From contig JBHGNT010000011.1 of NCBI GenBank assembly GCA_043228905.1, forward strand, positions 15,376,001 to 15,440,000: DNA of 64,000 nucleotides, given 5' to 3'. A model generated the notes under the pieces. It was not told the origin of the DNA and ran no database searches. It saw only the letters and a list, made by a program, of their open reading frames with translations. Source of the stretch: Azolla caroliniana. Its lineage: Eukaryota; Plantae; Polypodiophyta. The position numbers and the translations under genes are program-made. Each line of letters opens with the position of its first letter. Position 1 is the first letter of the stretch. Shown piece after piece: positions 14,701 through 52,051 of this stretch.

Positions 14701-15849
14701 TCGAACCTCCGGAACGTGTCTGACATCCTTCAGCAGCATTTTGCATCCGGTCGAGGTTGTCACCCACACGTCTCCTATGCCGGCAATCCGGCACGTACCT
14801 TCATTTCCCATCCGAACACAGCCATGCTCACCGGCTGTGTAGGATGAGAAGTATCTTCTCTCCGGGGTCAGGTGGAACGATGCTCCGGAATCGACCACCC
14901 AGGTCGTCTCATCGCCGGCAATGTTTAGTTCACCTTCTTCGGTGATGAGCATGATTTCTTCCTCACTTGCCGCGAGTGCCGTCGTTCCTTTCCGGTCCTG
15001 CCCTCGCCGATCCGGACCTCTCCGGTCCGTGGCTCCCCGGTATGCACCGTTTCTCTCCGGTGGCTTCTTCGAATCGGTGTCGTCGGCTCCGTTGTCCTTT
15101 CGGTAATGCCGACAATTCTTCCGGAAGTGCCCCGGCTTCCCACAGTGGAAGCATGTGGGTCTTCCTCTTGACTGCGACCGGGTCCCCGACTTCTCCCGTC
15201 TTTGCGGACTCCGGTTCCATTGTCTTCCCCGTTCCGATTCGGTAAGCAGCGCCTTCGAGTCGGAGGCCGGTTCTTTATCTCTCCGACGCGCTTCCTCATT
15301 CAAAATACTTGTCTTTACCGTTTGTAGGGACAAGTTATCTTCCGTGCAGGAGGTGCTGAGAGTCACCACCAAGTTCTCCCAGCTTTCCGGCAATGTACAC
15401 ATCAGAATGATGGCTTGCATTGCATCCTCCAACGGGAACTTGATCGCCGCAAGCTGGTTCACGAATCCCATGAACGTGCTTACGTGTTCCACCATACTCT
15501 CGCGGTCCCGGTACTTGAGGTTCACTATCTTCCTCATCAGGGAGGTCCGGTTCAACGCGTTCTTCCTCTCGTAGAGGCCCGACAGCTTCCGCCACATCTC
15601 ATATGCGTTGGTGTCGTTCGCCACATGTTGTAGAACGCTCACGTCCACGTATTGCCGAATGGTTGCAACGGCTTTCCGGTTCAGAAGCCTCCATTCCGAC
15701 TAAAGTACTCCCTTCGGTATTTCCGACCTGTCAATCGGTTCGTACAGGTCCCGAACAATCAAAAGATCCTCCATCTTGATCTTCCAGTCGGCGTAATTCT
15801 GCGCATTCAGCACCATCATCCCCGACTGCCTGCTGCCGCCGCCTTCCAT
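11776..15849 (-). CDS. Copia C gag-pol polyprotein, single frame, with one in-frame TAG at codon 50 (15700-15702)
   Basis: The ATG at 15849 is in frame with the 1290-aa ORF (MEGGGSRQSGMMVLNAQNYADWKIKMEDLL...). Motifs CFHCGKPGHFRKNC, WVVDSGAS, WHKRLCH...CTDC, HTDVC...DNGGEY...AERMNRT, YVDD and FTDSD are present. Confidence 0.9.
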
Positions 15850-17166
15850 TTTCTGCAGCAGCCTGCTCTGATACCAAATTGATGAAAAAAATCAATCGAC
15901 ACTTTCCAAACTTCACCTCTCGGCCACAACCAAGGAAACACACGAATCGTTGTTGCAGAAAATGGGAAATGTAGAAGTAAATAAGTGGACACACGATTTA
16001 ACGTGGAAAACCCTGTACGGGAAAAACCACAGGAGTACAAGACTCCGAACCAAAACTATGCACAGAGAAGTATACAATGGCGAGCTGCAAAGCGACGACC
16101 TTGAGCTCGCTGTCCTCGCCACAGGCGGCGGAAATACACAGAGGCGTCGACCTCTTCCTCTCTCACGCTCTATCTCTCTCACAGCTGCTCTCTCTTCACT
16201 CCTCTTGAGTGGAAAAACAGAAAAATGAGTAGCCCCATTAAAACTGTTTGCCCTAAGTCATATTTATACACATATGACTTTGGGGCTATTTACAACTATA
16301 GCCTCAAGGGCCCTTGGCAAACATATTCACAGATATGTCCCCGCATCCGGATCTCTCTCCGGTGTCGTGAAGAAAACCGTCCATAGGCGGAATCGGCGCA
16401 CCAAGGCGTGGGAACCGGTTCTTCACGCGCGCACGCTCCGAGTTGTACATAGAAACGAATTGAGAGGATAATCGGCAGGAACGGGCCCTAACTCAAGTGG
16501 AGACAAAGACCGCGCGAACAGTCTTTTCGGTCGCGCGCGCGAACTGTACGAGTCGGCGGCGTAACTACGCGGATCCGTGAAAAACGGAGCGGATCCCTGT
16601 CCAAAAGGGACAGGGAATAAAGCTGACACGACGGCCTGTTCGTCGGCCTATATAAGGAGCGGGAAAGAGCTGTTGCAGGGATCTGGCGCGGAGAGGACGA
16701 AGTGCTGTCGGACCGTTTCTGGACGCTTCGCTCTCTCTGTTTCCTTCCTTCTTGAGCTCCAAAGCTTTCTGTGCAGGGTTCCGGGGAGGCTCGCGCTGTT
16801 TCGAGGAACGCCCGAGTGCTTCCGGCAGCACCTCCGACCTGCTACCCCCCCCCCATTTCCCCGTTTGTGCGTCGAAGCGAACAGGCATCGGCATCTGTTC
16901 GCCGGCCTGTTCGGTTGCAACCAACCTGTGCCCCATCGGGGGTTGTAGTCGTGTTAGCCATTTTGTTAATACACATATTTAGTCATTCGCATCCGTCTGT
17001 GTCGGTGTCTGTTCGCGTTCTCCGTGCTGAAGGGCCGTGTCCCTGTGTATCCCCGGTCCTGCGTAGCCGGTTCTCTCTCTTTCTCCTCCCTCGCTTGCTC
17101 TTTGGTTCGAGACCCCCGCGGTCCCGCCTCTATTCCACACGCACTTGCGTAATATCTCGACATCTT

Positions 17167-17184
17167 TGGTGAACCCGACGTGAA
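17167..17184 (+). promoter_or_regulatory. Primer-binding site complementary to the 3' end of tRNA-Trp
   Basis: TGGTGAACCCGACGTGAA is the reverse complement of TTCACGTCGGGTTCACCA, the 3' end of plant cytosolic tRNA-Trp. It lies 4 nt after the LTR. Confidence 0.85.
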
Positions 17185-17206
17185 AGAGGCGGCAGAAGAG
17201 CAGAAG

Positions 17207-19333
17207 ATGAGGGGGTCGGATCTCGCAGAGGCCATGGCTTCGGCCGTGGATCGGATCGTAAACGCGCGCGAGGGTACCGGTGCCCTCGACAGAGCTATTG
17301 AGGCGGTCGTCGGCACGATCGGCCGGTTCGATGGGAGGGATGCCACGAAGTATCTGGCGTCCTACGGTGCAGAAATGTTGATGCGGGACATTCCGGAAGA
17401 AAGGCGTCTTGCCGGTTTTCCCCGAGTGGCAATGCCGAGCATCCATGCGGAGGTGCTCGAGGTGCGGGCGGAGAGCCGTACCTGGGAGGAGTTCGAAGGT
17501 CGGCTCCTAGAGAAATACGGGCTGGACGACGCGCTCCGGCTTTCGAAGCGAAGGTTCATGGAATGGGTGGAGTCCCCGGGGAAGGGAAGAAACGCGTCGG
17601 CACTCCTCCGGGAGTTCGAGGAAAACTTTGCGCGCCTTTCGGCGCTCGACCGAACCATCCTGGACACGAGCCGGGTCTTGCTGTTTGTCAAGTCGGTCGA
17701 CGAGCGGGATCGGGAGCAAGTGGGCCTCTTGCTGGAAACCGAAGACGGGCTCACTACCGACTGGGCGGCTGTCAGGAAGGTCTGTGGCCGTTTCGACAAA
17801 CGGCGAGAATGGGCGGATAACGGGGCGACTGGGTCGGGCTCGGTCGCAGCAAGGAAGCTCGAACCAGCGCCACAGGTGCGCAAGGAAGAGACCCGGGAGT
17901 GGTTGGAAACCGGTTCGGCTTCGACCGGCGTAGTCAGAGGCTCAACCGGAGGAGCGGCGCTGGAGGAATTGACGAAGGCGATAAAGGACCTCCAAATCGC
18001 GCAGGCCCGAAGGGAAGGAGGCGAACCGGCTCGTGACCGACGGCCGGCGGCAGGAAACAGGTGCATGTGGTGCGATGAAGTCGGCCACGTTCGGAAGGAC
18101 TGCGGCGACTTCGCGGAGGCGCTGAGGGACCGGGTGGTGTACCTGTGGGAAGGACGGGTGCATGCCAGCGACACCCGAAGGGCCCTGAGCCGAAACGACG
18201 GAAAGGGTGGTATGAAAAGGTTGATGGAAGAGGCGGCGGCCCGACACGCGGAAACCGTCCACTACTCGGCGTCGGCCGGCATTCGAGTCGGGGGCGGCGA
18301 GGCCCGAAAGGAAAGCAAAGCCGGATTCTGGCCGACGATGCTGGAAGGCCTTGCCGGTGCAGGGCTTAAAAGGGAGGAATCGGACCGTGCGGAGAAACGG
18401 GTACGGGAGATGACCGGGTGGAGCGACCCGGTCGAGGAAAGGACGGGCTTCGTGGAAGCCGCTTGGCGGAACTACGAGGCTCTGGTAGAAGAGAAGCGGG
18501 TGGGAAAACCCGGGACGACCGGGCCCTCACAACGATACGAGACCCGGTCCGGGCCACGACGGGACGAAGCCGGCAGGGCCGGTACGCAAGATAAACCCCA
18601 GAAGGGCGGGTACCGTCTGGGGACGGAGATAGAAAGAACCACGGACTTACGAAAGGTCCTGGAGGAACGGATCCTCGACAGCAAGGTGGAGCTGTCGCTA
18701 CGGGAGGTGCTTGGAATCGCCAAGAAGGAGTTCCACGACTCCATCGTGGACTTGGTGAAACGGAAGAGGCTGTCAACGGAGACAGAACCGGAAAGACCGG
18801 TGGAAGTGCGGACGACGCACCTAGACGACATGGCGCTGGGAGACGAGTGGGCGGAAAGCCACTATTCGAGACCGCACTGGGCCCGAGCGACCACGGAAAC
18901 CCCGGTGAAGATCGGCGATGTCCAGGAACCGGTGATAGCTTTGGTGGACCACGGATCGGAGATCAATTTGATGTCCATGGACTTCTATAAGAAGGGCAAA
19001 TGGCCGATCAACACCAAGCACGGGTGGAAAATAAGGGCAGCAACGCACGCCACCGAGGAACTGCACGGGGCCTGTCCGAATGTGCGAGTCAAGATCGGCG
19101 ACGTCGAGATTGACCAGCACTTCTTCGTGCAGGAGACGTCTTCGCATCCGGTCATACTGGGAGAGCCGTACATCACGGCGGCGCGAATGGAGACCAAGGT
19201 GCTGGACAATGGTTCGGCCTATGCGCGGGTCAAGAGCCAGGACGGGCGCCATTCGGTCCAGTTTTTGACGGTTAGGCCGAACCACGAGCGTAACCGCGAC
19301 TCCCTCGGTTCCGATAACCGAGAGGATTTTTAG
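17207..19333 (+). CDS. Gypsy D ORF1: Gag plus aspartic protease
   Basis: Uninterrupted ORF with first ATG at 17207. CCHC knuckle CMWCDEVGHVRKDC. Retropepsin-like ALVDHGSEINLM...VILGEPY near the C-terminus. Confidence 0.9.
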   Translation: MRGSDLAEAMASAVDRIVNAREGTGALDRAIEAVVGTIGRFDGRDATKYLASYGAEMLMRDIPEERRLAGFPRVAMPSIHAEVLEVRAESRTWEEFEGRLLEKYGLDDALRLSKRRFMEWVESPGKGRNASALLREFEENFARLSALDRTILDTSRVLLFVKSVDERDREQVGLLLETEDGLTTDWAAVRKVCGRFDKRREWADNGATGSGSVAARKLEPAPQVRKEETREWLETGSASTGVVRGSTGGAALEELTKAIKDLQIAQARREGGEPARDRRPAAGNRCMWCDEVGHVRKDCGDFAEALRDRVVYLWEGRVHASDTRRALSRNDGKGGMKRLMEEAAARHAETVHYSASAGIRVGGGEARKESKAGFWPTMLEGLAGAGLKREESDRAEKRVREMTGWSDPVEERTGFVEAAWRNYEALVEEKRVGKPGTTGPSQRYETRSGPRRDEAGRAGTQDKPQKGGYRLGTEIERTTDLRKVLEERILDSKVELSLREVLGIAKKEFHDSIVDLVKRKRLSTETEPERPVEVRTTHLDDMALGDEWAESHYSRPHWARATTETPVKIGDVQEPVIALVDHGSEINLMSMDFYKKGKWPINTKHGWKIRAATHATEELHGACPNVRVKIGDVEIDQHFFVQETSSHPVILGEPYITAARMETKVLDNGSAYARVKSQDGRHSVQFLTVRPNHERNRDSLGSDNREDF

Positions 19334-19389
19334 AGAGGGCTGCCAAGGCGTGGGGCCGCGACAGTCCGGACACCCCGGGAAAACCCCAC
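19324..19389 (+). promoter_or_regulatory. Putative -1 programmed ribosomal frameshift signal (G_GAT_TTT heptamer plus H-type pseudoknot)
   Basis: The heptamer at 19324-19330 abuts the ORF1 TAG. A 6-nt spacer follows. Stem 1 is GGGCTG (19337-42) / CAGTCC (19362-67); stem 2 is GTGGGG (19350-55) / CCCCAC (19384-89). The -1 frame is open from 19318 into pol. Confidence 0.75.
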
Positions 19390-22300
19390 ACCTGTACGAT
19401 AAAACCGAAGAAACCTTGTACCATAGGTAGGGAATTTTTGTTCTCCGACAACGGAGCGTGTGCGATGGTCGGCATCGCCGGCCGAGAGAAAACAAAGACG
19501 GAGGCGAGACTTCGAGCGTGCGGAGTTCTCGGCCCGGACGAGGAAATCAACGGAGCCGTGGAGGCGGTCTCATTCGACGACACCTTGGGAATGCTGGGAA
19601 AGGTAGTCGAAGAAGGCCTTAACGACGACCGGACGATACCGGTGTGTTCCGAGGAGATGTACGAAGTCATCGCGGACTTCGGTCGAGGGCTCGAGTCAGT
19701 TCGGACGGCCCACGTAAACACCAAGTACAAGACTGTGGACCGGAAGGTAAGGCCAGTAGCGGCACCCTTACCGGAGGACAGCGCGTCGAGAATCAAAGGG
19801 GTTGCATCAGACCCTAGTCTACGAGATCCGGCCTGCATAGGGCACACCTTCACTGACGAGACGCTCCGAGAGCTCAAAATCGGTGGGGGCGGGTTCCTAC
19901 TGCCGGCGGAGGAAGACCGGTTTCGGAGAATGCTCGGAAGGCACGGGAAAGCCTTCGCATTCTCGCCGGAGGAAATCGGGTGCGTTGACCCGACGATCGT
20001 GGAGCCGATGGTGATATTCACGGTACCGCATGTACCATGGAATCTCAAGCCAATCCCGGTTCCGAGAGCTCACATCCCGAAGTTGATGGAGCTGCTGAGG
20101 CAGAAAGTTGATATGGGAATTCTTGAGCCGTCGAGCGCCCCATATTCGAATCGATGGTTTACCGTACCGAAGAAAAACGGTTCGCTGCGCTTCATCCAGG
20201 ACCTGCAGCCGGTCAATCGAGTGACCATTCGGAACGCAGGAATCGGACCGACCATAGACGAGTTCGCGGAGGCCTTCGCCGGAAGGTCAATTTACTCGGT
20301 CGGGGATCTATACTCAGGGTACGACCAGTTCCAGCTGGCCGTGGAGAGCAGAGACCTTACGACGATGCGAACTCCCCTCGGCCTAGTTCGGATGTGTACA
20401 CTGCCGCAAGGAGGGACCAACTCGGTGGCCCACATGGTGAATGCGATGAACAAGGTTCTGAGGGACTGTGTCCCGGACATTACCATGCCGTTTCTGGACG
20501 ACATCCCGATCAAGGGATGCCCGGTGGAAGAAAAGGACGAGACGATCGGGCCGGACGGATGCCGGCGATTCGTGGCGACGCACGTCGACGACTGCGAGAA
20601 GGTGCTGCAAAGGCTAGAGGATGCGAGACTCACCTTCTCCGGGGAGAAGTCGGCCTTCGGGCAGTCAGAAATCATGGTGGTCGGACACCTGTGCGGACCA
20701 TATGGCCGGAAACCGTCTCCGGCGAAGGTAGAAGCCATCTCCGCGATGAAGCCCGACTGCAGCTCGGTCACGGAAGTACGGAGATTCCTGGGGGCATGCG
20801 CGTTCTACCACATATGGATCCCGCATTACGCACACGTCGCGGAGCCACTGTACGGGTTGCTGAAAAAGGGGCGAAGGTTCGAATGGCTAGACAAGCACGC
20901 GGAATCGGTCCGGAAGCTGAAAGAGGCCCTTGCAGCGGCACCGGCACTCCGGAAGGCGGTTTACGGGAAGGGTACCCCGGTATTCATAACGGTGGATACC
21001 AGTCCGACCGGGATCGGATGGGTCGTGAACCAGGAAGACGAGGACGGCAATCGGTTTCCGATCCGATTCGGCGCGAAAGTCCTCAGTGAACGGCAGCGAG
21101 GGTACGCCCAGGTTAAACGCGAACTCTGGGGTATTGTTTCGGCGGTTAAGGCCGACAAAGACTACCTGATAGGGACGGAAGTGATCATCGAGACGGATTG
21201 CCTGCCGATTCTCGGTATGGTTTCCGGATGCGCGACTCCGGACCTGGCGATGCTCAGGTGGATAGCGTACATCAAGTCCCTGGACCCGGAAATACGACAC
21301 ATTTCCGGGAAAGACAACGCCATGGCCGACATGCTTTCGAGGGCGAGGTTCGACGACGAGGGCGGCATGGTTTCGGAAGACGAAGAAGTCGGCGTGGATT
21401 TCTTCGAGGCGGCATACATAACGACCGACGGGGAATGGCTGCAGATCGGCGGGTTTTTGAAGACGATGACGCCCGATGCGTCATGGACGAAGGACGAGGC
21501 CAACCGGATCCGGAAGAAAGCATATCGATTCTTTCTCCGAGATGGGCATCTATGGAAGCACCCGAAGAAGAGGGACGGCGTCCCGCTCCGAGTGGTGGCG
21601 ATGAAGGAAGAACAGGAGGAGCTACTGGCGGCCTACCACGACAGCCCTTGGGCTGGACACCGTGGAACGTGGGCGACGTTTGAGAAGCTGAAGGGAAAGT
21701 ACTGGTGGCCGGGATTGTACCGGGACGTGCATCGGTTCGTGTCAACTTGCGAGAGTTGTCAGATGCACTCGATAGTCCGACACCGGGACGGGCTTCACCC
21801 TACGTACCCTCCGACTATCCACTTCAAATGGATGGTAGATCTGGTGACGATGCCGATGGGGGTAGGACAGATGCGGTATCTGGTCCTAGCGCGGGAAGAC
21901 CTGACGAACCAGGTGGAAGGCCGAGCCCTTCAGAACAAGACGACCGCGGCCGTGTGTCGGTTCCTAGTCGAGGACGTGATATGCCGGTACGGGTGCGTCG
22001 GGAAGATCGTGGCTGACCGAGGGGAGTTGGACGCCGAAGAGGCCGCGGAGCTGTTCGACCGGCTTGGAGTCAAGCTCTCGCTCACCACTGCGTACAATCC
22101 GGAGGCGAATGGAAAGGTGGAGCGCGGACACGGACCGATCGTCAAGGCGTTGATTCGGGCATGCGGAGGCCAAGTCGGTAACTGGCCGCGGCTGCTACCT
22201 TATGCTTTGTGGGCAGACCGGACCACGCACAGTTCGGTAACCGGGTACATGCCGACGGAGCTCATGTTCGGCCAGAAGCCGATCATGCCGATTGAACGGA

Positions 22301-22773
22301 CGATCTCCTCGTGGGCAACGGTCGACTGGAGGGACGAGATGAGCCGGGAGGAGTTGTTGGTCGCACGTATACGACAGCTCGAGCGGAGGCCGGAGGACGT
22401 GGCACTGGCTACGGAGAAGCTCCGGGTGGCGAGGACAAAGAACAAAGCCCGGTTCGACCGAACGCACCGGCTACGACCGAAGAAAATCGAAGAAGGTGAC
22501 TGGGTGCTCGTCTACGACAGCAGCCTCGACAACCAGCACCGAGCCACACGGAAGTTCGCACGAAGGTGGTTCGGGCCTTACGTGGTACGGAGCGCCAATG
22601 ACAACGGGACATATCACCTGGCGGAACTTGACGGCACGAGAATGGCGATACCGGTTGCAGGGAAGCGGATCAAAGCGTTCAAGAAGCGACACGACGACGA
22701 GCCAGACCCGGCTCTCCTGGTCGGCAGTGACGAACGATCCGAAAATGAAGAAGAACCGACGGGCGAGGAATGA
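19330..22773 (+). CDS. Gypsy D ORF2: RT, RNase H, integrase (-1 frame relative to ORF1)
   Basis: RT GDLYSGYDQF...LPQG...FLDD; RNase H VDTS...KREL...ETDC...NAMADMLSR; integrase HDS...GH...CESC, VDLV...ADRGE...NGKVER, and a WFGPY motif. RT-RH-IN is the Gypsy order. Confidence 0.92.
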   Translation, partial: LERAAKAWGRDSPDTPGKPHTCTIKPKKPCTIGREFLFSDNGACAMVGIAGREKTKTEARLRACGVLGPDEEINGAVEAVSFDDTLGMLGKVVEEGLNDDRTIPVCSEEMYEVIADFGRGLESVRTAHVNTKYKTVDRKVRPVAAPLPEDSASRIKGVASDPSLRDPACIGHTFTDETLRELKIGGGGFLLPAEEDRFRRMLGRHGKAFAFSPEEIGCVDPTIVEPMVIFTVPHVPWNLKPIPVPRAHIPKLMELLRQKVDMGILEPSSAPYSNRWFTVPKKNGSLRFIQDLQPVNRVTIRNAGIGPTIDEFAEAFAGRSIYSVGDLYSGYDQFQLAVESRDLTTMRTPLGLVRMCTLPQGGTNSVAHMVNAMNKVLRDCVPDITMPFLDDIPIKGCPVEEKDETIGPDGCRRFVATHVDDCEKVLQRLEDARLTFSGEKSAFGQSEIMVVGHLCGPYGRKPSPAKVEAISAMKPDCSSVTEVRRFLGACAFYHIWIPHYAHVAEPLYGLLKKGRRFEWLDKHAESVRKLKEALAAAPALRKAVYGKGTPVFITVDTSPTGIGWVVNQEDEDGNRFPIRFGAKVLSERQRGYAQVKRELWGIVSAVKADKDYLIGTEVIIETDCLPILGMVSGCATPDLAMLRWIAYIKSLDPEIRHISGKDNAMADMLSRARFDDEGGMVSEDEEVGVDFFEAAYITTDGEWLQIGGFLKTMTPDASWTKDEANRIRKKAYRFFLRDGHLWKHPKKRDGVPLRVVAMKEEQEELLAAYHDSPWAGHRGTWATFEKLKGKYWWPGLYRDVHRFVSTCESCQMHSIVRHRDGLHPTYPPTIHFKWMVDLVTMPMGVGQMRYLVLAREDLTNQVEGRALQNKTTAAVCRFLVEDVICRYGCVGKIVADRGELDAEEAAELFDRLGVKLSLTTAYNPEANGKVERGHGPIVKALIRACGGQVGNWPRLLPYALWADRTTHSSVTGYMPTELMFGQKPIMPIERTISSWATVDWRDEMSREELLVARIRQLERRPEDVALATEKLRVARTKNKARFDRTHRLRPKKIEEGDWVLVYDSSLDNQHRATRKFARRWFGPYVVRSANDNGTYHLAELDGTRMAIPVAGKRIKAFKKRHDDEPDPALLVGSDERSENEEEPTGEE

Positions 22774-24742
22774 AGACGGGCCGGTTTTCTCCGTCCCAAC
22801 TCTCTTGGCGCATACCGGAGGATGCGCGGTTAGGTGGGGGCGGATGTCGTGAAGAAAACCGTCCATAGGCGGAATCGGCGCACCAAGGCGTGGGAACCGG
22901 TTCTTCACGCGCGCACGCTCCGAGTTGTACATAGAAACGAATTGAGAGGATAATCGGCAGGAACGGGCCCTAACTCAAGTGGAGACAAAGACCGCGCGAA
23001 CAGTCTTTTCGGTCGCGCGCGCGAACTGTACGAGTCGGCGGCGTAACTACGCGGATCCGTGAAAAACGGAGCGGATCCCTGTCCAAAAGGGACAGGGAAT
23101 AAAGCTGACACGACGGCCTGTTCGTCGGCCTATATAAGGAGCGGGAAAGAGCTGTTGCAGGGATCTGGCGCGGAGAGGACGAAGTGCTGTCGGACCGTTT
23201 CTGGACGCTTCGCTCTCTCTGTTTCCTTCCTTCTTGAGCTCCAAAGCTTTCTGTGCAGGGTTCCGGGGAGGCTCGCGCTGTTTCGAGGAACGCCCGAGTG
23301 CTTCCGGCAGCACCTCCGACCTGCTACCCCCCCCCCCATTTCCCCGTTTGTGCGTCGAAGCGAACAGGCATCGGCATCTGTTCGCCGGCCTGTTCGGTTG
23401 CAACCAACCTGTGCCCCATCGGGGGTTGTAGTCGTGTTAGCCATTTTGTTAATACACATATTTAGTCATTCGCATCCGTCTGTGTCGGTGTCTGTTCGCG
23501 TTCTCCGTGCTGAAGGGCCGTGTCCCTGTGTATCCCCGGTCCTGCGTAGCCGGTTCTCTCTCTTTCTCCTCCCTCGCTTGCTCTTTGGTTCGAGACCCCC
23601 GCGGTCCCGCCTCTATTCCACACGCACTTGCGTAATATCTCGACACCGGGTACATTCGTCATCCGGCTCCGAAGCCGGGGTCTTCATCATCCGGTTCCGA
23701 AACCGCAACCGGGCTTGTCGGCATTCATCTCTGACATCCGACCATCCCATCCGAAAGGGACCGTAATCCCAACATCTGTGTTATTCCTTGTCTCTCTCTC
23801 TCACTCTCTCTCTCTCATACACACACATAACTCACATCTCTTCCGCTTCACAAGAATCATATCCGATTCTTTACATAAAGGATGTAAGCTCAAATGTCTG
23901 AGCTCCATCAAATATAATTTAGGCATTGACAATGTCGTCAACTATAATAATGTGCCATTTAAAAGCCAATGTGGAAAGCCATCACATCTCCATATTTATC
24001 ACCAAATATCACTTTCCTCTACACACTTAGTGCTGATTTTGAAATCAAGAATGAAGCTTTGAGAGGACTAGCTGAGCAAAACATACTTGAACACTATTTT
24101 TTAGTCATTGCAATGACTCATCATGAGAATTCACCATGATGGCTCACGAAAATAGTTTACCATGGTAAGAGTTGTTGATGGCCCCCTACATTATTTTGGA
24201 AATTCAACACGTTGTCGTGAAGAAAACCAGCCATAGGCGGAATTGGAGAGAAAGCGCGTAAACCGGCCCTTACACGGATGAACGCGTGACTGGATACTTT
24301 GCACGCGAACCGGTGGATGTAACTACTAAGCCGCACGCATTTATTAGAGGGGATTGTGCGTATCCCGGTTGGGGGGGGGGGGGGGGACAGGGAATAAAGG
24401 CAAGAGGAGAAGAGAAGGACGATATCGCGCGCGAGGAGAAGGAAGGAGGTTGCGGCAGAACGGAAGGCGGAGCTCTCTCTCTACGACTCGAATCGTCGCT
24501 CCCTGCGGGTGTCGGGAGGTCGCTGCCTCTGATTCGTGGACAACCCGTGTGCTTCCAGCAGAGTCGCTCCCCTTCCCCTTTGTTTCCTTGAGTCGTTGAC
24601 TGTAGTCGGTGTGCGTGAGTAGGGTCCTCGTGTCGGGCCCGTCGCCACTTTGTCGGTTGTAATCGTCAGAGTCTGTAATCTCTGTCATTATAATTAAGTG
24701 TTGTGTTCTGTTTCTCTCTTCTCGCTTCTACGTGTTGGTGAA

Positions 24743-24783
<41 letters not shown>

Positions 24784-25916
24784 CCTCGGTCCAAGACCCT
24801 CGTGGTCCCGCCCCTTTCTACACGTACGCGCGTAACAACGCGACATATATTCGTGAACCCGACGTGAAAGGGCGGCAAAGGAGTCGAAAGATGAGGGGAT
24901 CGGAGCTAGCAGAGGCAATGGCGGTGGCCGTCGACCGGCTGGTGAGCGCTCGTGAGGGAACGGGTACCCTCGACAGAGCCATTGAATCGATCGTCGGCTC
25001 TATAGGCCGTTTCGGAGGGAAAGACGGCCACAAGTTATTTGGAGGCTTACCGGGCCGAAATGATCATGAGGGATATCCCAGTGTACAGGCGGCTGTCCGG
25101 ATTCCCTCGGGTGGTGACGCCGGGCATCCATGCGAAGGTGCTCGAGGTGTTGGCCGGATGCCAGACATGGGAGGAGTTCGAGCTGTAGCTCCTCGAGAAG
25201 TACGGGTTTGACGACTCGCTCCGGCTGTCGAGGCGGGACTTCATGGCGTGGGTGGAAAGCCCCAAAAAAGCGAGGAACACGTTGGTGCTCCTCCAGGAGT
25301 TCGAAAAACGGTTCGCGCGGCTGTCGACGCTGGACCGGACGGTGCTCAAGACGAGTCGAGTGCTGTTGTTTGTCAAGTCGGTGGATGCGCTCGACAGGGA
25401 AAAGGTGGGTCCCCTACTGGAAACGGATGAAGGGCTCACAACGGATTGGGCCGTGGTAAAACGGGTTTGCAGCCGTTTCGACAAACGGCGCGATTGGAGC
25501 AACGGAAGCACATCGGGGTCGGAGCCGGTCCCGGGGAGGAGGCTCGAGGAGCCGGTTTCGGTGCCGGCTGGGAGGAAGGAAGAGACCCGAATCTAGCCGA
25601 AATCGGGGTCGGCATCGAATGACATGGTCAGAGGCCCGTCCGGAGGAGCGGCTCTGGAGGAGCTATCACAGATGGTGCGCGACCTGCAGATCGCACAGGC
25701 CCGAAGACACAGCAGTGAACAACCTCGCGACCGGAGGCTGTCGACTGGGCAACGGTGCATGTGGTGTGACGCGATCGGTCACATTCGGAAGGACTGCGCG
25801 GATTTCGCCGACGCGCTCAGGACCAACGTGGTGTACCTCTGGAACGGGCGGGTGCACGCGAGCGAGACCTGGAGAGCCCTGGAATACGGGGCGCGGCGGA
25901 ATGAAGAGGTTGATGG

Positions 25917-26724
25917 TGATGGGAACCTATGTTCCTTATGCGCAATGCTCGGCCACAACCGAGATTCTTTTCATACACAGAAAAACGGGAAATACAACAC
26001 GATACAAAGGAGAGGAAGATACACACACACTACACAGGAGGTTAACGTGGAAAACCCCAAACTGGAGGAAAAACCACGGCAGCTCACATGCTGCAAACTG
26101 TCACTATGTATGAATGTACAAAACAGTGAGTTCTCAGAGGCAACGACCTCGGACTCACGCTCTTCGCCACAGGCGGCGGTTACAACAGAGGCAACGACCT
26201 CGTTCTCTCTCTCTCTCTCTGTACACTATTACGTACTCTCACTTCTTCTTGCACCAACAAGAAAAGTAACAACAACAACAGTAACTAAAAGTTTGCCCTA
26301 AGTCATATTTATACTAATATGACTTTTCGGCTATTTACAAATGTAGCCTCGATGGGCTCTCAGAAACATATTTACGAATATGTCTCTTCCTCCGGTTCGT
26401 ACCGGGCTTGCACCATCCAGTTCTCCGTAGCCGGGTACTCCTCATCCGGTTCATACCAAGCCTGCACCATCCGGCTCTCCGTAGCCGGGTACTCCTCATC
26501 CGGTTCATACCAGGCCTGCACCATCCGGCTCTCCGTAGCCGGGTACTCCTCATCCGGTTCATACCGGGTCTGCACCATCCGGCTCTCCGTAGCCGGGTAA
26601 TCCTCGTCCGGTTCATACCGGGTCTGCACCATCCGGCTCTCCGTAGCCGGGTATTCCTCATACCGTTTCTGTTCGTCGGCACTGTTCTTCTCTCTTCCCA
26701 TCCGGAGGGACCTGTCTCCCAACA
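25917..26724 (-). mobile_element. Solo LTR of a Copia C-related family
   Basis: Ends TGATG...CCCAACA as in the C LTRs. It shares the blocks AACGTGGAAAACCC, CGCCACAGGCGGCGG and TTTGCCCTAAGTCATATTTATAC with them. TSD GATGG/AATGG (one mismatch). The flanks rejoin as E gag MKRLM|EEA. Confidence 0.85.
26391..26660. repeat. 54-bp tandem repeat, 5 copies, inside the solo LTR
   Basis: Unit TCCGGTTCATACCAGGCCTGCACCATCCGGCTCTCCGTAGCCGGGTACTCCTCA starts at 26391, 26445, 26499, 26553 and 26607. Confidence 0.93.
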
Positions 26725-27732
26725 AATGGAAGAGGCCGTGACACGGCACATCGAAGCCGTTAACTGGCTGGGGAAGAAGAGGCGGACCGCGCGGAACAGC
26801 GGGTCCAGGAGGTCACCGGTTGGGACAATCCGGTGGAAGAGAAAACGGGCTTCGTAGAAGCCACTTACCAGAACTACGAGGTTTTGGTGGAGGACAAACG
26901 GGTAGGAAAGGCCGGAGGGGTCGCCCCCCCGAGGTATGAGACCCGGTTCGGACCGAAACCGACCGGTGCCGGCAACCCGAGCGCACCGGACGGAAAGAAG
27001 CAGGCGGGGTTTCGGTTGAGCACAGAGATCAAAAGGACCACAGACCTGCGAAGGGTCCTGGAAGAGCGAATCCTCGACAGTAAAGTGGAGTTGTCGTTGC
27101 GGGAGGTGCTGGGAATCGCCAAGAGGGAGTTCCATGACTCTATCGTAGACTTGGTGAAGCGGAAGAGGCTCTCGACAGAGCCGGAACCGGAGAAGCCGGT
27201 GGAAGTGAGGACCACGCACCTGGAAGACGGAGCCTTGGAAGATGAGTTGGCGAGAAGCCACTACACGAAGCCGCATTGGGCCAGGGTGACTACGGAAACC
27301 CATGTACGGATCGACAACGTTCTGGAACCGGTGGTGGCATTGGTAGACCATGGATCCGAAATCAACCTGATGTCCATGGATTTCTACAAGAAGGGTAAAT
27401 GGCCGATCAACACCAAGCACGGCTCGAAGATACGGGCAGCGACACGCGCCACGGAAGAACTACATGGGGCATGTCCGAACGTACGGGTGAAAATCGGCAA
27501 TGTCAAGATCGACCAGCACTTCTTCGTGCAGGAGACGTCCTCGCATCCGGTTATACTAGGAGAGACATATATCACGGCGGCACGAATGGAGACCAAGGTG
27601 TTGGACAATGGTTCAGCCTATGCAAGAGTCAAGAGCCAGGACGGGCGTCACTCGGTCCAGTTCCTAACGGTGCGACCAAACCACGAGCGTAACCGCGAGG
27701 CCCTCGGCAACGAAACCCGAGGGGATTTTAAG

Positions 27733-30635
27733 AGAGGGCTATCAAGGGGTGGTGCCGCGATAGTCTGGACTCCCGGGAACAACCCCACAAATGTACAGTA
27801 CGGAAGAAGACTTGTACCATGGGTAGGAAGTTTTGGTTCTCCGACAACGGAGGTTGTACTATAACCAACGTCAGCGGCCGGGAGAGGAAGCGAGCGGAGG
27901 AGCGGCTCAAGGGATGCGGAGTCCTCTTCCCTGACGAAGACATCAGCGGCGCCATGGAGGCGGTCTCTTTTGACGACACCTTGGGCGAACTACGAAAGGT
28001 GATCGATGAAGACCTTAGAGAAGACCGGACCATTCCGATAGGGTCGATGGGAATGTACGAAGTCATCGCAGACTTTGGGAAAAGGATCGGGTCGGATCGG
28101 ACGGCCCGCGTGGATACGAAATACAAGACTGTGGACCGGATGGTGAGACCAGTCGCGGCACCCTTGCCGGAGGGCAGCGAGGAGCGGATAAAGGGGGTCG
28201 CGTCGGACCCAAGTTTACGAAATCCAGCTGGCATAGGGCACCGATTCATTGACATAACGCGACGGGAGCTCAAGGTCGGTGGGGGCGGCTTTCTACTACC
28301 GGCGGAGGAGGACCGGTTTCGGAGAATGCTCGGAAGGCACGGGAAGGCTTTCGCATTCTCACCGGAGGAGATCGGGTGCGTAGACCCGACAGTTGTCGAA
28401 CCGATGGTGATCTTCACGGTACCGCATGTACCGTGGAATCTCAAGCCGATTCCGGTGCCAAGAGCTCACATCCCGAAGTTGATGGAGATCCTAAAGCAAA
28501 AGGTGGAGATGGGCATCTTCGAACCGTCGAGTGCCTCGTATTCAAATCGGTGGTTTACGGTGCCGAAGAAGAACGGCACGCTGCGCTTCATCCAGGATCT
28601 ACAACCGGTCAACAAGGTGACCATCCGTAATGTAGGGATCGGACCGACCATAGACGAGTTCGTGGAGGCCTTCGTTGGAAGGTCGATCTATTCTGTCGGT
28701 GATCTGTACTCAGGGTACGATCAGTTCCAACTAGCCGTGGAGAGCAGAGACATTACGACGATGCGGACTCCTCTTGGCCTAGTGCGGATGTGTACCCTGC
28801 CACAAGGAGGGACGAACTCAGTGGCTCACATGGTGAACGCGATGAACAAAGTGCTCAGGGATTGTATCTCGGACATCAACATCCCGTTCTTAGACGACAT
28901 CCCGATCAAGGGATGCCCAATGGATAAAAGGGATGAGGCAATCGGGCCGGACGGATGTTGGAATTTCGTGGCGTCCCACATCGATGACTACGAGAAGGTG
29001 CTGCTGAGACTAGAGCGCGCGAGGCTCACCTTCTCCGGGGAAAAGTCAGCCTTCGGACAGTCAAAGATCTTGGTGGTCGAACACCTGTGCGGGCCTTACG
29101 GTAGGAAACCGTCTCCGGCAAAGGTAGAGGCCATCTCCGCGATGAGGAACGTTTGCGGGTCGGTCACGGAGGTCTGCAGATTCTTGGGGGTATGCGCGTT
29201 CTACCACATCTGGATCCCGCACTACGCACATGTCGCGGAACCCCTCTACGGACTATTGAAAAAGGGGTGTAGCTTTGAGTGGAGGACGGAGCACGCGGAG
29301 TCGGTTCGGAGACTAAAGGAGGCACTTACGGCAGCGCCAGCTCCCCGTAGAGCGGTTTACGGCAAGGATGTTCCCATCTGCGTAACGGTGGACACAAGCC
29401 CGACCGGGATCGGGTGGGTAATCAGTCAGGAGGACAAGGGCGGGGTACGATTCCCGATCCGGTTCGGGGCGAAGGTATTGAGTGAGCGGCAGCAGGGGTA
29501 CGCCCAAGTTAAGCGCGAACTTTGGGGTGTCGTTTCGGCAGTCAAGGCCGACAAGGATTATCTGATCGGGACAAAGGTGATTATTGAGACGGACTGCCTG
29601 CCGATACTCAGCATGGTTTCCGGATGCGCGACGCCGGACCTAGCAATGCTCCGGTGGATAGCGTACATTAAGTCCCTGAACCCGGAGATACGACACATCT
29701 CCAGAAAGGACAACGCCATGCCCGACATGCTGTCGAGGGCAAGGTTCAACGACGAAGACGGCATGGTTTCGGAGGACGAAGAAGTCGGTGAGGACTTCTT
29801 CGGGTCGGCTACTGTAATGACAAGAAGGAAAGGGAACACTTCGGCGCTTAACGAATTTGACGAAAGCAGGTACAACGGGGAGTTCCTACGGACGATGACG
29901 TCGGACACAGCATGAGCGAGAGAGGAGGCGAGCCGGATACGGAGGAAGGCGTACCGATTCTTCCTGCGGGACGGGTGCATATGGAAACACCCAAAGAAGA
30001 GAAGCGACATCCCACTCTGAGTAGTGGCAAAGAAAGAAGAACAGGGGAAACTACTACCGACATTCCACGAGAGCCCATGGGCCGGACACCGCGGAACGTG
30101 GGCCACGTTCGAGAAGCTGAAGGAGAAGTACTGGTGGATGGGGCTATACCAGGACGTGCATCGGTTCGTAACGACCTGCGAAAGCTGTTAGGTGCACTCC
30201 ATAGTCCGACACTAGGACAAGCTACACCCGACCTACCCGCCTACTGTCCATTTCAAGTGGATGGTGGACTTGGTGACGATGCCGATGGGGGTAGGATAGA
30301 TGTGATGCCTGGTGCTTGCACGGGAAGACTTAACGAACCAGGTCGAAGGCCGTGCACTGCAAAGCAAGACAACCGCGGCGGTATGTCGGTTCCTAATCGA
30401 AGAAGTAGTGTGTTGGTAGGGGGTGCGTTGGGAGGATCGTGGCGGACCGAGGAGAGCTGGATGCGCGGGAGGCCGAGGAGTTGTTCGACCGGCAAGGCGT
30501 CAAACTCTCCCTCACCACGGTGTACAATCCGGAGGCGAATGGAAAGGTGGAACGTGGGCATGGACCGATTGTAAAGGCGTTGGTGCGTGCATGCGGTGGG
30601 CAGGTCGGGAATTGGCCGCGACTCCTTCCTTACGC
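27733..30635 (+). pseudogene. Gypsy E pol (RT, RNase H, integrase N-terminal part)
   Basis: A 698-aa ORF contains FLDD, VDTS and TDC. Multiple stops follow from 29913. It is cut at LLPYA by element G. Confidence 0.9.
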
Positions 30636-31424
30636 TGTCGGGGTTGCTACGCCCTTGCGTGTAGAAAGGAGGAGGGACCACGGGGGTCTCGAACCGAAGA
30701 GCAAGAGAGAGAGGAGTAAGAGAGAGAGACCCGATTACACAGAACCGAAGATCCGATTGCGCAGAACCGACGATTGCACAGGGACACGGCCCAACAAACA
30801 GAGATCACAAATAGACGCCGACGCAGATGGACGCAACAACGAGAGATATGTGCTTATGAACGCAAGAAAATAACAGACTAAAGTATTACAACCCACGGTG
30901 GGGCACAAAATAGATACTAACGGAAACGAACAGGGCGGCGAACAGCTGCCGACCCCTGTATGTCGCGACGCACAGAAGGGGAAAACAGGTCGGAGGTGCT
31001 GCAGGACGCACTCGGGGCGTTCCACGGAACAGCGCAAGCCTCCTCGAAACCTGCACAGGTACGCGATGGAGCAGAAGACAGAGAGAGCAGGAGTGAGAGA
31101 GAAGCTCCGAAATCGGTTCGGCAGCACTTTGTCCTCTCCGCGGGAGATGTCCGACTTCTATTCTTCCTCTTCCTTTTATAGCCCGTCAAGAGGCCGTTTG
31201 GCATTAACTGCATACCAACCGAATCTGCCCACCTAGGATCCTCGTATGTACCTACTTCGTCCTTAGGTACTTCTTGGCGCGCGCGTGTGTGTAGAGCCGT
31301 TTCCCACGCCTTGTTCCTCCGATTCCTCTTGTGGGCGGTTTTCTTCACGACATCCGCCCCCACCTAACCGCGCATCCGCCGGCATGCGCCAAATTGAGTT
31401 GGCACGGAGAAAACCGGCCCGCCT

Positions 31425-34400: not shown

Positions 34401-34916
34401 GTGCCCTATGCAGGCCGGATCTCGTAGACTAGGGTCCGATGCAACCCCTTTGATTCTCGACGCGCTGTCCTCCGGTAAGGGTGCCGCGACTGGCCTTACC
34501 TTCCGGTCCACAGTCTTGTACTTGGTGCTTACGTGGGCCGTCCGAACTGACCCGAGCCCTCGACCGAAGTCCGCGACGACTTCGTACATCTCCTCGGAAC
34601 ACACCGGTATCGTCCGGTCTTCGTTAAGGCCTTCTTCGACTACCTTTCCCAGCATTCCCAAGGTGTCGTCGAATGAGACCGCCTCCACGGCTCCGTTGAT
34701 TTCCTCGTCAGGGCCGAGAACTCCGCACGCTCGAAGTCTCCCCTCCGCCTTTGTCTTCTCTCGGCCGCCGATGCCGACTATCGTACACGCTCCGCTGTCG
34801 GAGAACAAAAATTCCCTACCTATGGTACAAGGTTTCTTCGGTTTTATCGTACAGGTGTGGGGTTTTCCCGGGGTGTCCGGACTGTCGCGGCCCCACGCCT
34901 TGGCAGCCCTCTCTAA
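31425..34916 (-). CDS. Gypsy G ORF2: RT, RNase H, integrase
   Basis: An uninterrupted 1127-aa ORF extends upstream to the G_GAT_TTT heptamer at 34922-34916. Motifs match those of D. Confidence 0.92.
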   Translation of the reverse strand, partial: LERAAKAWGRDSPDTPGKPHTCTIKPKKPCTIGREFLFSDSGACTIVGIGGREKTKAEGRLRACGVLGPDEEINGAVEAVSFDDTLGMLGKVVEEGLNEDRTIPVCSEEMYEVVADFGRGLGSVRTAHVSTKYKTVDRKVRPVAAPLPEDSASRIKGVASDPSLRDPACIGHTFTDETLRELKIGGGGFLLPAEEDRFRRMLGRHGKAFAFSPEEIGCVDPTIVEPMVIFTVPHVPWNLKPIPVPRAHIPKLMELLRQKVDMGILEPSSAPYSNRWFTVPKKNGSLRFIQDLQPVNRVTIRNAGIGPTIDEFAEAFAGRSIYSVGDLYSGYDQFQLAVESRDITTMRTPLGLVRMCTLPQGGTNSVAHMVNAMNKVLRDCIPDITMPFLDDIPIKGCPVEEKDETIGPDGCRRFVATHIDDCEKVLQRLEDARLTFSGEKSAFGQSEIMVVGHLCGPYGRKPSPAKVEAISAMKPDCSSVTEVRRFLGACAFYHIWIPHYAHVAEPLYGLLKKGRRFEWLDKHAESVRKLKEALAAAPALRKAVYGKGTPVFITVDTSPTGIGWVVNQEDEDGNRFPIRFGAKVLSERQRGYAQVKRELWGIVSAVKADKDYLIGTEVIIETDCLPILGMVSGCATPDLAMLRWIAYIKSLDPEIRHISGKDNAMADMLSRARFDDEGGMVSEDEEVGVDFFEAAYITTDGMSTPALNEFDASKYDGEWLQIGGFLKTMTPDASWTKDEANRIRKKAYRFLLRDGHLWKHPKKRNGVPLRVVAMKEEQEELLAAYHDSPWAGHRGTWATFEKLKGKYWWPGLYRDVHRFVSTCESCQMHSIVRHRDGLHPTYPPTIHFKWMVDLVTMPMGVGQMRYLVLAREDLTNQVEGRALQNKTTAAVCRFLVEDVICRYGCVGKIVADRGELDAEEAAELFDRLGVKLSLTTAYNPEANGKVERGHGPIVKALIRACGGRVGNWPRLLPYALWADRTTHSSVTGYMPTELMFGQKPIMPIERTISSWATVDWRDEMSREELLAARIRQLERRPEDVALATEKLRVARTKNKARFDRTHRLRPKKIDEGDWVLVYDSSLDNQHRATRKFARRWFGPYTVQSANDNGTYHLAELDGTRIAIPVAGKRIKAFKKRHDDEPDPILLDSSDDRSEAEEGPAGEE

Positions 34917-37039
34917 AAATCCTCTCGGTTATCGGAACCGAGGGAGTCGCGGTTACGCTCGTGGTTCGGCCTAACCGTCAAAAACTGGACCGAATGGCGC
35001 CCGTCCTGGCTCTTGACCCGCGCATAGGCCGAACCGTTGTCCAGCACCTTGGTCTCCATTCGAGCCGCCGTGATGTACGGCTCTCCCAGTATGACGGGGT
35101 GCGATGACGACTCCTGCACGAAGAAGTGCTGGTCTATCTCGACATCGCCGATCTTGACCCGTACATTCGGGCAGGCCCCGTGAAGTTCCTCGGTGGCGCG
35201 CGTCGCCGCCCTTATCTTCCACCCGTGCTTGGTGTTGATCGGCCATTTGCCCTTCTTATAGAAGTCCATGGACATCAGGTTGATTTCCGATCCGTGGTCC
35301 ACCAAAGCTACTACCGGTTCCTGGACATCGCCGATCTTTACCGGGGTTTCCGTGGTCGCTCGGGCCCAGTGTGGCCGCGAATAGTGGCTCTCCGCCCACT
35401 CGTCTTTCAGCGCCATGTCGTCCAGGTGCGTCGTCCGCACCTCTACCGGTCTTTCCGGTTCTGTCTCCGTTGACAGCCTCTTCCGTTTCACCAAGTCCAC
35501 GATGGAGTCGTGGAACTCCTTCTTGGCGATTCCCAGCACCTCCCGTAGCGACAACTCCACCTTGCTGTCGAGGATCCGTTCCTCCAGGACCTTTCGTAAG
35601 TCCGTGGTTCTTTCTATCTCCGTCCCCAGACGGTACCCGCCCTTCTGGGGTTTATCTTGCGTACCGGCCCCGCCGGCTTCGTCCCGTCGTGGCCCGGACC
35701 GGGTCTCGTATCGTTGTGAGGGCCCGGTCGTCCCGGGTTTCCCCACCCGCTTCTCTTCTACCAGAGCCTCGTAGTTCCGGCAAGCGGCTTCCACGAAGCC
35801 CGTCTTTTCCTCGACCGGGTCGCTCCACCCGGTCATCTCCCGTACCCGTTTCTCCGCACGGTCCGATTCCTCCCTTTTAAGCCCTGCACCGGCAAGGCCT
35901 CCCAGCATCGTCGGCCAGAATCCGGCTTTGCTTTCCTTTCGGGCCTCGCCGCCCCCGACTCGAATACCGGCCGACGCCGAGTAGTGGACGGTTTCCGCAT
36001 GTCGGGCCGCCGCCTCTTCCATCAACCTCTTCATTCCGCCTCGCCCGTCGTTTCGGTTTAGGGCCCTTCTCGTGTCGTTGGCGTGAACCCGGCCTTCCCA
36101 TAGGTACACCACCCGGTTCCTCAGCGCCTCTGCGAAATCGCCGCAGTCTTTTCGGATGTGGCCGACCCCGTCGCACCACATGCACCTGTTCCCTGCCGCC
36201 GGCCGTCGGTCACGAGCAGGTCCTCCGTCTTCTCTGCGGGCCTGTGCGATTTGGAGGTCTTTTATCGCCCTCGTCAGTTCCTCCAACGCAGCTCCTCCAG
36301 TCGAGCCTCTGATCACGCCGGTCGGAGCTGAACCGGATTCCAGCCACTCCCGAGTCTCTTCCCTTCGCACCGGCTGCGCCGGCTCGAGTTTCCTCGCCGC
36401 GACTGAGCCCGAACCGGTTGCTCTGTCATCCTCCCATTCTCGCCGTTTGTCGAAACGGCCGCAGGCTCTCTTGACCGCCGCCCAGTCGGCTGTCAGCCCG
36501 TCTTCGGTTTCTAGCAGGGCGCCCACGTGACTCCGATCCCTCTCGTCAACCGATTTGACGAACAGCAGGACCCGGCTTGTATCCAGGACCATCCTGTCAA
36601 GCGCCGAAAGGCGCGCGAAGTTCTCCTCGAACTCCCGGAGGAGTGCCGACGCATTCCTTCCTTTCCCGGGAGACTCCACCCACTCCATGAAGCTTCGCTT
36701 CGAAAGCCGGAGCGCGTCGTCCAGTCCGTATTTCTCCAGGAGCCGACCTTCGAACTCCTCCCAGGTACGGCTCTCCGCCCGCACCTCGAGCACCTCCGCG
36801 TGAATGCTCGGCATCGCCACTCGGGGAAAACCGGCAAGACGCCTGTCTTCCGGAATGTCCCGCATTAACATTTCCGCACCGTAGGACGCCAGGTACTTCG
36901 TGGCATCTTTTCCAGTGAATCGACCGATCGTTCCGACGACCGCCTCAATAGCTCTATCGAGGGCGCCGGTGCCCTCGCGCGCGCTTACTATCCGATCCAC
37001 GGCCGAAGCCATGGCCTCTGCAAGATCCGCCCCCTTCAT
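34913..37039 (-). CDS. Gypsy G ORF1: Gag plus protease (708 aa)
   Basis: The ATG lies just after the PBS. Contains CMWCDGVGHIRKDC and ALVDHGSEINLM, and ends REDF-TAG as in D. Confidence 0.92.
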   Translation of the reverse strand: MKGADLAEAMASAVDRIVSAREGTGALDRAIEAVVGTIGRFTGKDATKYLASYGAEMLMRDIPEDRRLAGFPRVAMPSIHAEVLEVRAESRTWEEFEGRLLEKYGLDDALRLSKRSFMEWVESPGKGRNASALLREFEENFARLSALDRMVLDTSRVLLFVKSVDERDRSHVGALLETEDGLTADWAAVKRACGRFDKRREWEDDRATGSGSVAARKLEPAQPVRREETREWLESGSAPTGVIRGSTGGAALEELTRAIKDLQIAQARREDGGPARDRRPAAGNRCMWCDGVGHIRKDCGDFAEALRNRVVYLWEGRVHANDTRRALNRNDGRGGMKRLMEEAAARHAETVHYSASAGIRVGGGEARKESKAGFWPTMLGGLAGAGLKREESDRAEKRVREMTGWSDPVEEKTGFVEAACRNYEALVEEKRVGKPGTTGPSQRYETRSGPRRDEAGGAGTQDKPQKGGYRLGTEIERTTDLRKVLEERILDSKVELSLREVLGIAKKEFHDSIVDLVKRKRLSTETEPERPVEVRTTHLDDMALKDEWAESHYSRPHWARATTETPVKIGDVQEPVVALVDHGSEINLMSMDFYKKGKWPINTKHGWKIRAATRATEELHGACPNVRVKIGDVEIDQHFFVQESSSHPVILGEPYITAARMETKVLDNGSAYARVKSQDGRHSVQFLTVRPNHERNRDSLGSDNREDF

Positions 37040-51926: not shown

Positions 51927-52051
51927 TGATTCAAAGAGGAAAGAAACAGAGGAAGGAACAGAGGAACAGAGTGTGAAGGAGGGAGGAGGATGGTTTACAA
52001 GAGAAGACAGGAATCCCCTTCTTTCTTTACATTGTTTTTTATCTGAGTTAT

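Follow-up and report, generated by a model that had tools for sequence, protein, structure and literature searches.

A Predicted Programmed −1 Frameshift Signal With an H-Type Pseudoknot Between Protease and Reverse Transcriptase in Ty3/gypsy Retrotransposons of Azolla caroliniana, and a Sister Lineage in the −2 Frame

Results

Reading frames and cassette of element D

The window analysed here is a 64,000-nucleotide (nt) stretch of the Azolla caroliniana genome (assembly GCA_043228905.1, contig JBHGNT010000011.1, positions 15,376,001 to 15,440,000 of the forward strand); positions below count from its first letter. Region 16363-39036 contains three related Ty3/gypsy elements, termed D, E and G. 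In element D two long open reading frames (ORFs) overlap by a few codons, and an initial annotation, made from the sequence alone, had proposed a −1 ribosomal frameshift signal with a pseudoknot at this overlap. The ORFs and the parts of the cassette are as follows.

17207..19333, +, ORF1 of D, 708 amino acids (aa), Gag-like, with a CCHC-like motif, DUF4100 and a C-terminal retropepsin-type protease (LVDHGSE), ending REDF-stop
19318..22773, +, ORF2 of D in the −1 frame, 1151 codons: linker of ~135 aa, reverse transcriptase (RT), RNase H (RH) and integrase (IN)
19315..19317, +, TAA closing the −1 frame just before the shift site (from sequence)
19324..19330, +, slippery heptamer G_GAU_UUU, predicted −1 shift site (from sequence and conservation)
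19331..19336, +, ORF1 stop TAG (19331-33) plus 3 nt, together the 6-nt spacer
19337..19367, +, 31-nt hairpin; stem 1 pairs 19337-44 with 19360-67 and has a single C.A mismatch in D; 19347-48 and 19356-57 form inner pairs
19350..19355, +, 5′ strand of stem 2, GUGGGG, in the hairpin loop
19384..19389, +, 3′ strand of stem 2, CCCCAC, 16 nt past the hairpin
34857..34922, −, cassette of G, identical to that of D (from alignment)
27723..27788, +, decayed cassette of E, which keeps the heptamer and stem 1 but lacks the ORF1 stop and has a closed −1 frame

The heptamer, the ORF1 stop, the upstream TAA and the 6-nt spacer of D lie where the initial annotation had placed them, as do stem 1 (GGGCTGCC paired with GACAGTCC) and the complementary loop and downstream strands of the putative stem 2. 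The supporting copies have to be read differently. G does carry the site (34922-34916, minus strand); it is identical to D over the 161 nt compared, so the two make one observation and not two. Element E had been presented as an intact third example. It reads G_GAT_TTT_AAG and thus has no ORF1 stop at the site, a TAA at 27729-31 closes its −1 frame, and its loop (GGGGTGGTG) also spoils stem 2; with the stop missing and the frame closed, E was rejected as an independent functional copy. A stop follows the heptamer in 28 of the 30 best genome matches to the E junction (27 TAG, one TAA), E itself being one of the two without. The statement that pol has no ATG near its start does not hold for D, which has an in-frame ATG at 19465, absent from G. 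The supposedly conserved peptide ERAAKAWGRDS is kept among close families only and distant ones differ (e.g., KSTTIKRDYGG and PHAIVRRGCNG), and peptide conservation was dropped as evidence. Across families the base pairing is conserved and the peptide is not.

Position of the junction

The frame change had been assigned to the gag/pol boundary. The −1 change stands; its position does not, as ORF1 ends in a protease and ORF2 holds RT-RNase H-integrase, and the frame therefore changes between protease and RT. The predicted junction is thus protease/RT, not gag/pol. Pfam matches to a protease at the ORF1 C-terminus were weak and below curated cut-offs (E 0.006; 12/39 alignment members), for which reason a fold search was used: the AlphaFold model (predicted local distance difference test score, pLDDT, 83) matched Ddi1 and retroviral proteases at E ~2e-6. 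The nearest named protein clusters are aspartyl proteases, and a PDB sequence search with the protease gave no match. The usual retropepsin motif is D-[ST]-G; at 18947-18955 the catalytic motif reads D-H-G, with H in 92 of the 97 proteins with a parsed motif (among P0001-P0120) and S in one. By its modelled fold the D-H-G protein is retropepsin-like and a predicted protease.

Loci compared

We gathered 195 related loci: the Azolla caroliniana genome supplied 115, and the other 80 are the best of 169 from metagenome contigs. The detection rule, a slippery-like site plus a stem and hence partly circular, found a site in 182 of the 195 and none in 13. Among the metagenome loci a site was found in 72, in 62 of them directly before a stop; RT was placed in the −1 frame for 59 loci and in −2/+1 for four (two with a broken linker), and was unplaced in 17. 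The structure tests used 34 of the 195 loci, selected by hand so that each distinct family would as far as possible be represented once. This selection omitted redundant copies of E type and several loci that had decayed or lacked RT; L101 was added by hand. Thirty-two of the 34 are of −1 type, 31 of which are gap-free for the hairpin at a 6-nt spacer.

Conservation of the slippery heptamer

The heptamer G_GAU_UUY or a close variant is kept across the 34 loci. Its first G is present in all of them, under 11 different preceding amino acids, compared with a background of 28% G (1141/4080) at upstream third positions. The Asp codon at the site is GAT in 30 of 30 Asp-type loci; GAC accounts for 80 of 242 Asp codons upstream. 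The same constraint shows in the proteins. Of 120 homologues, 64 terminate in x[DGN]F and 25 in x[DG]FxxxP[LF], 89 in all, with varying linker length; only amino acids that have a G-ending codon occur before DF. The remaining 31 include many apparent gene models or fragments. A further 59 more distant representatives were selected because they extend to the end of the protease; many of them are likewise fragments or gene models, and 18 have a DF/GF/NF-type end. A search of the genome with the −1 pattern gave 3753 matches, compared with five for the control, and the spacer is 6 nt in 99 of the first 100 matches listed.

RT is in the −1 frame at loci with the heptamer variants G_GGU_UUU and G_GUU_UUC as well. 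A stop next to the heptamer is not required, since ORF1 of six families (L109, L132, L135, L137, L138, and L140) runs on to a stop within stem 1 or past it.

Stem 1 and stem 2

Loci were anchored on the heptamer alone and pairing was counted at each offset. With spacer 6, the 31 loci averaged 8.29 of 9 stem 1 pairs, and every other offset gave 2.2-4.2. At the fixed position at least seven of eight end-to-end pairs were found in 34/34 loci, compared with 529 of 93,427 background 31-nt windows (0.6%) from the same loci. In a structure-blind MAFFT alignment, 97.4% of stem 1 cells are paired and six of the eight pairs show double changes, which bears out the covariation proposed earlier; RNAalifold predicts the same eight pairs unaided. 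On a tree of protease (PR) plus RT, same-branch double changes number five for stem 1 and zero or one for slid pairings. For the whole structure none of 500 shuffles reached the observed values, and slid controls were 39-47% paired. The mismatch said to change between D and E does vary, with a correction of direction: U-A is found in 28 of 31 loci and the C.A of D is the derived state. Four inner pairs are weaker, each with double changes; with them stem 1 could reach 12 bp and leave a loop 1 of 1 nt.

Stem 2 pairs hairpin positions 14-19 with a strand 11-16 nt downstream. The loop of each locus pairs with its own downstream strand at 5.42 of 6 positions, compared with 5.08 of 6 for strands of other families, a difference reached by 1 of 20,000 permutations. 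Swaps on both strands include GUGGGG/CCCCAC, GCGAGA/UCUCGC, ACAGGG/CCCUGU, and UGAGGG/CCCUCA, and on an unfitted alignment five of six pairs show double changes. The loop thus covaries with a strand 3′ of stem 1, as in an H-type pseudoknot, more weakly than stem 1 and with a partly fitted register. A search of 19000-19800 against Rfam matched no curated frameshift model and returned a single snoRNA (small nucleolar RNA) match at chance level.

Reading frames downstream of the site

In 32 of the 34 loci one shifted frame alone is stop-free from the site to RT, and the other two frames carry 2-27 stops; the −1 frame is open in 30 of the 32 −1-type loci. The open frame closes 3-40 codons upstream of the site. 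The ratio of nonsynonymous to synonymous substitution rates (dN/dS) in the linker is below 1 in all seven pairs, one of them at 0.79 and another with saturated dS. No AUG position is conserved across the 34 loci, the first Met of the shifted frame lying anywhere from codon 1 to codon 109. The linker itself (19330-19740 in D) is ~100-135 aa long from site to RT, has the motif G-V/I-L..E..I..E.SF.DT..E and is under purifying selection; no Pfam family matched it.

A sister lineage with RT in the −2 frame

Two metagenome loci, L103 and L105, have RT in the −2/+1 frame and the site C_AG_GTT_TTT. Their hairpin forms nine of nine pairs at spacer 5 and two of nine at spacer 6. The L105 family is present in the Azolla caroliniana genome, with 89 pattern matches (control 0), 88 of which have the 5-nt spacer; a search of the genome with the L103 junction gave matches of ~72% identity, largely L105-type, and no close L103 copies. 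We fetched 45 loci, of which 32 are distinct and carry the site, nine are duplicates and four have no site. The −2 frame alone is open over 390 nt in 25 of the 32, and no frame is open in the other seven. Full-length stretches were taken from 14 copies chosen for an open linker, and nine of these have an open −2 frame of 1152-1153 aa to the end of integrase together with an immediate −1 stop. The long terminal repeats (LTRs) of the nine intact copies are 99.3-100% identical, which points to a recently active lineage. L103 and L105 form one clade (support 1.0) nested among −1 families in the PR+RT tree. Over 1097 codons they differ by dN 0.10 and dS 1.16, which points to an old −2 arrangement under selection. 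For the −2 family 23, 11, and 4 RNA reads were found, almost none of them at the junction. A more distant protein, P0246 (protease 40% identical), has an ORF1 end (...KEKVFY-stop) resembling the L103 −2-type end QVFY-stop, and is possibly an independent −2 lineage.

Classification of the elements

The LTRs and other features that define the three elements are listed below.

16359-62, target-site duplication (TSD) CCGG before the 5′ LTR of D, found again after the 3′ LTR
16363..17162, +, 5′ LTR of D (TG...CA), 99.9% identical to the 3′ LTR over 801 columns
17167..17183, +, primer-binding site of D, complementary to the 3′ end of tRNA-Trp
22845..23645, +, 3′ LTR of D, followed by CCGG (LTR alignment)
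16363-23645, +, element D, 7283 bp
30636-37799, −, element G, 7164 bp, within E; LTRs 99.9% identical; TSD ACGC
24213-39036, +, element E, split by G; LTRs 93.4% identical; TSD ACGT

LTR pairs with TG...CA ends, a TSD and the domain order PR-RT-RH-IN mark these as Ty3/gypsy elements. REXdb gives a 4-bp NCGN TSD and tRNA-Trp priming as marks of the Phygy lineage (PMC6317226, available part). The TSDs of D, G, and E all fit NCGN; D has the tRNA-Trp primer site, 14 nt of which match the 3′ end of a genomic tRNA-Trp(CCA) gene in L214; and the PR-RT-RH-IN order and relatives in Physcomitrium, Riccia, and Adiantum, the sources of the named homologues, agree as well (marks after PMC6317226). The domain scan of the elements matched no chromodomain, as in the non-chromovirus Phygy lineage. 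At 7283 and 7164 bp, D and G fall just below the Phygy range of 7656-9968 bp, a descriptive figure from one species (PMC6317226); −2 family copies with full LTRs measure ~7.9 kb. By these marks D and G are young Ty3/gypsy retrotransposons of Phygy-like type. The available part of the same source gives the Phygy coding organisation as "ND" (not determined) and does not describe a frameshift, unlike the signal predicted here (PMC6317226). A search of viral contigs found no relatives.

Other features of the window

A young copia element at 11156-16362 adjoins the 5′ end of D, with LTRs 99.2% identical and a minus-strand ORF of 1307 codons. Part of an AT-richer insertion in ORF1 of E (26291-26763), which holds four 54-nt tandem repeats at 26384-26667, resembles the LTR of this element. 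Another copia element at 3396-5258 has an in-frame TAA (4353-55) between gag and protease, followed by GAAGTT; the TAA could reflect a mutation or serve for readthrough. Past the transposon cluster, the AT-rich gene region has a 12-nt tandem array (52004-52345) and a minus-strand ORF with a Myb DNA-binding domain (59017-60204).

Discussion

Proposed −1 frameshift

We concluded that the cassette is most probably a programmed −1 frameshift signal, with slippage at G_GAU_UUU and a predicted H-type pseudoknot 6 nt downstream, and we put the probability of this reading at about 0.88. It agrees with what the initial annotation proposed, and the comparative evidence behind it is the invariant first G of the heptamer, the covariation of stem 1, the preference of stem 2 strands for their own partners and the open, selected frame downstream. 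The spacer falls within the 5-9 nt typical for −1 frameshifting (PMC5009743), and G_GAU_UUU supports −1 shifting in wheat-germ extract in pea enation mosaic virus (PEMV) RNA2 (PMC4737148). In the proposed mechanism most ribosomes would stop at the UAG and release Gag-PR. A minority would stall with GAU in the P site and UUU in the A site as the pseudoknot ahead (stem 1, 8-12 bp; stem 2, ~6 bp; loop 3, 11-16 nt) withstands unwinding. After slipping back by a single base, these ribosomes would produce Gag-PR-RT-RH-IN, its junction reading ...REDF-LERAAK. The outcome would be a low ratio of RT/IN to Gag, with one protease per Gag.

Several observations weigh against this interpretation or dilute its support. 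The sequence of D alone folds no better than its shuffles (z −0.24 and −0.37), so the evidence for the structure is comparative; the minimum-energy fold predicted for D consists of stem 2 and a competing hairpin, not stem 1. Only 76.5% of stem 2 cells pair when the alignment is unfitted, and the own-versus-cross and fixed-position counts used a fitted best register. Site detection demanded a stem, which favours structure, just as picking 34 loci by hand favours intact cassettes; 77 of the 80 metagenome loci come from one accession series, and the shuffle and permutation controls ignore relatedness. Three Riccia proteins (P0121, P0123, and P0124) are annotated as single Gag-PR-RT-IN fusions, which may be gene-model artefacts with a false intron or real unshifted relatives. 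As to the −1 and −2 types, ten of the 31 −1 loci can extend the stem by a C-G pair and so reach a 5-nt spacer, which means that spacer length alone cannot separate the two, and G_GUU_UUU serves as a −1 site in cardioviruses (PMC7618472, available part).

Alternative explanations

A simple hairpin could stimulate the −1 shift with stem 2 incidental: stem 2 is G-rich and easily matched by chance, as the cross-family mean indicates, and six loci form only four of its six pairs. We consider this unlikely, since swaps other than G-runs are matched on both strands in the distant lineages L131, L135, L139, L125, and L105, and since the unfitted double changes and the permutation result both speak for stem 2. 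A pseudoknot is very probably the structure concerned. Another alternative is that RT-IN is read from a spliced RNA joining ORF1 to ORF2 in the manner of Ogre elements, the structure serving splicing or packaging. Ogre elements are described as spliced (reference titles in PMC6317226), the −2 lineage site CAG/GTTTTT resembles a splice donor, and the three Riccia fusion records would fit. Yet no donor between protease and stop is conserved across the 34 loci, and no in-frame YAG acceptor is common to L103 and L105. The candidate introns would also remove conserved residues, and splicing leaves the invariant heptamer unexplained. PolyA reads from a related organism (423 and 238 reads from ~1/8 of each run, mostly 85-95% alike) cover the junction at a depth of about 12 and 6 with no joint listed, which at this depth and identity is weak evidence; a contig from a sequencing run that is presumably RNA extends ungapped across 19184-19566. 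We regard splicing as very unlikely.

Even less credence is given to separate translation of RT-IN by reinitiation or internal initiation at a downstream AUG. Such an AUG is not hard to find: every locus has an in-frame Met before RT, mostly near codon 99-110 (S-x-x-M-Y), and D has the ATG at 19465. The first Met wanders too widely for this, however; the M-Y Met is missing in L081, L116, L131, and L132; and in L062, L063, L073, L076, L086, and L133 the conserved linker extends upstream of any AUG and is nevertheless open. A free RT-IN would also need another route into the particle, which counts against separate initiation. For the sister lineage in particular, +1 slippage, or a non-autonomous element left by a 1-nt deletion, has to be considered, as −2 and +1 lead to the same frame. 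A U comes after UUU in L103 and in 8 of the 88 genome matches whose spacer is 5 nt, which permits re-pairing at +1. Most sister copies read UUU_G, which does not permit it, and the change of GAU to GUU is what permits A-site re-pairing at −2. The strong purifying selection on ORF2 since the L103/L105 split and the intact young copies argue against non-autonomy. Taken as a pair, these two explanations are rather doubtful.

Provided that recoding takes place, the same pseudoknot would probably drive a −2 shift in the sister lineage; most of the weight for this lineage goes to −2, far less to +1 and somewhat less again to splicing or another route. We favour, with moderate confidence, a natural switch from −1 to −2 within a single retrotransposon clade of early land plants, in which G_GAU_UUU with a 6-nt spacer became AG_GUU_UUU with a 5-nt spacer through one base change and a 1-nt shortening, a pseudoknot driving the shift before and after.

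Relation to known frameshift systems

Pseudoknot-driven −1 frameshifting is well known in viruses and animal retroelements, and the mechanism proposed here is of a known kind. The closest plant parallels are PEMV RNA2, which has the same G_GAU_UUU heptamer and uses plant ribosomes, and the dianthoviruses, for which a G_GA first triplet is listed; in umbraviruses and dianthoviruses the stop follows the site directly or after 3 nt (PMC4737148, PMC5009743), directly in the case of red clover necrotic mosaic virus (PMC4737148). The heptamer of the elements shares the non-canonical G_GA triplet, in the correct frame within the short overlap. The structures differ, a bulged stem-loop pairing with a distant 3′ hairpin in these viruses and a compact local H-type pseudoknot here (PMC4737148, PMC5009743). 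Retroviruses, animal Ty3/gypsy elements and PEG10 likewise combine a −1 heptamer with a 3′ pseudoknot 5-9 nt away that sets the Gag:Pol ratio; there the shift usually separates gag from PR-RT-IN, whereas the elements described here would use a single shift after the protease (PMC5009743). According to the available part of the same review, a 2003 survey counted two plant types with separate frames, both +1 (via PMC5009743).

The sister lineage has the octamer AG_GUU_UUU of the arterivirus nsp2TF −2/−1 site (PRRSV), a long open −2 frame and, in the L105 family, the immediate −1-frame stop (PMC7618472, PMC6675879). Arteriviruses use no RNA structure and need nsp1beta and a poly(C)-binding protein (PCBP) on a C-rich motif 10 nt downstream (PMC7618472, PMC6675879). 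The sister lineage has a predicted pseudoknot from −1 ancestors 5 nt downstream; the motif CCCANCUCC is absent 10 nt downstream in the sister sequences, where the hairpin lies instead. By analogy, the sister site would work like the arterivirus site without being a member of that group. Engineered U6A constructs behave similarly, as −2 shifting was optimal at spacers 1-2 nt shorter, with pseudoknots too (PMC3458567); those were artificial constructs in reticulocyte lysate, and the switch described here would be evolved and selected. In its available part, a 2016 review names phage Mu, arteriviruses, and Trichomonas vaginalis virus 1 as natural cases of −2 shifting (PMC5009743). We found no report of the present signal in a literature search to which subscription journals, theses and repeat-database entries were external, so that its absence from print is not established; the word "frameshift" does not occur in the available part of PMC7466625. 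Three things appear to be new: the occurrence of the signal in plant retrotransposons, clade-wide and backed by covariation; its location behind the protease; and the change from −1 to −2.

Significance

The cassette would explain how RT is expressed in one of the most abundant element groups of the genome, and why gene callers truncate or mis-splice these ORFs. If the −2 reading is true, the sister lineage would supply a −2 frameshift that RNA structure stimulates in an element of a eukaryotic chromosome. Evolution would then have confirmed the mRNA-tension model, and one genome would hold matched cassettes of both kinds, −1 and −2. This natural pair differs in the octamer and one spacer base, which makes an old mechanistic question, what decides between −1 and −2, directly testable on natural sequences with plant ribosomes.

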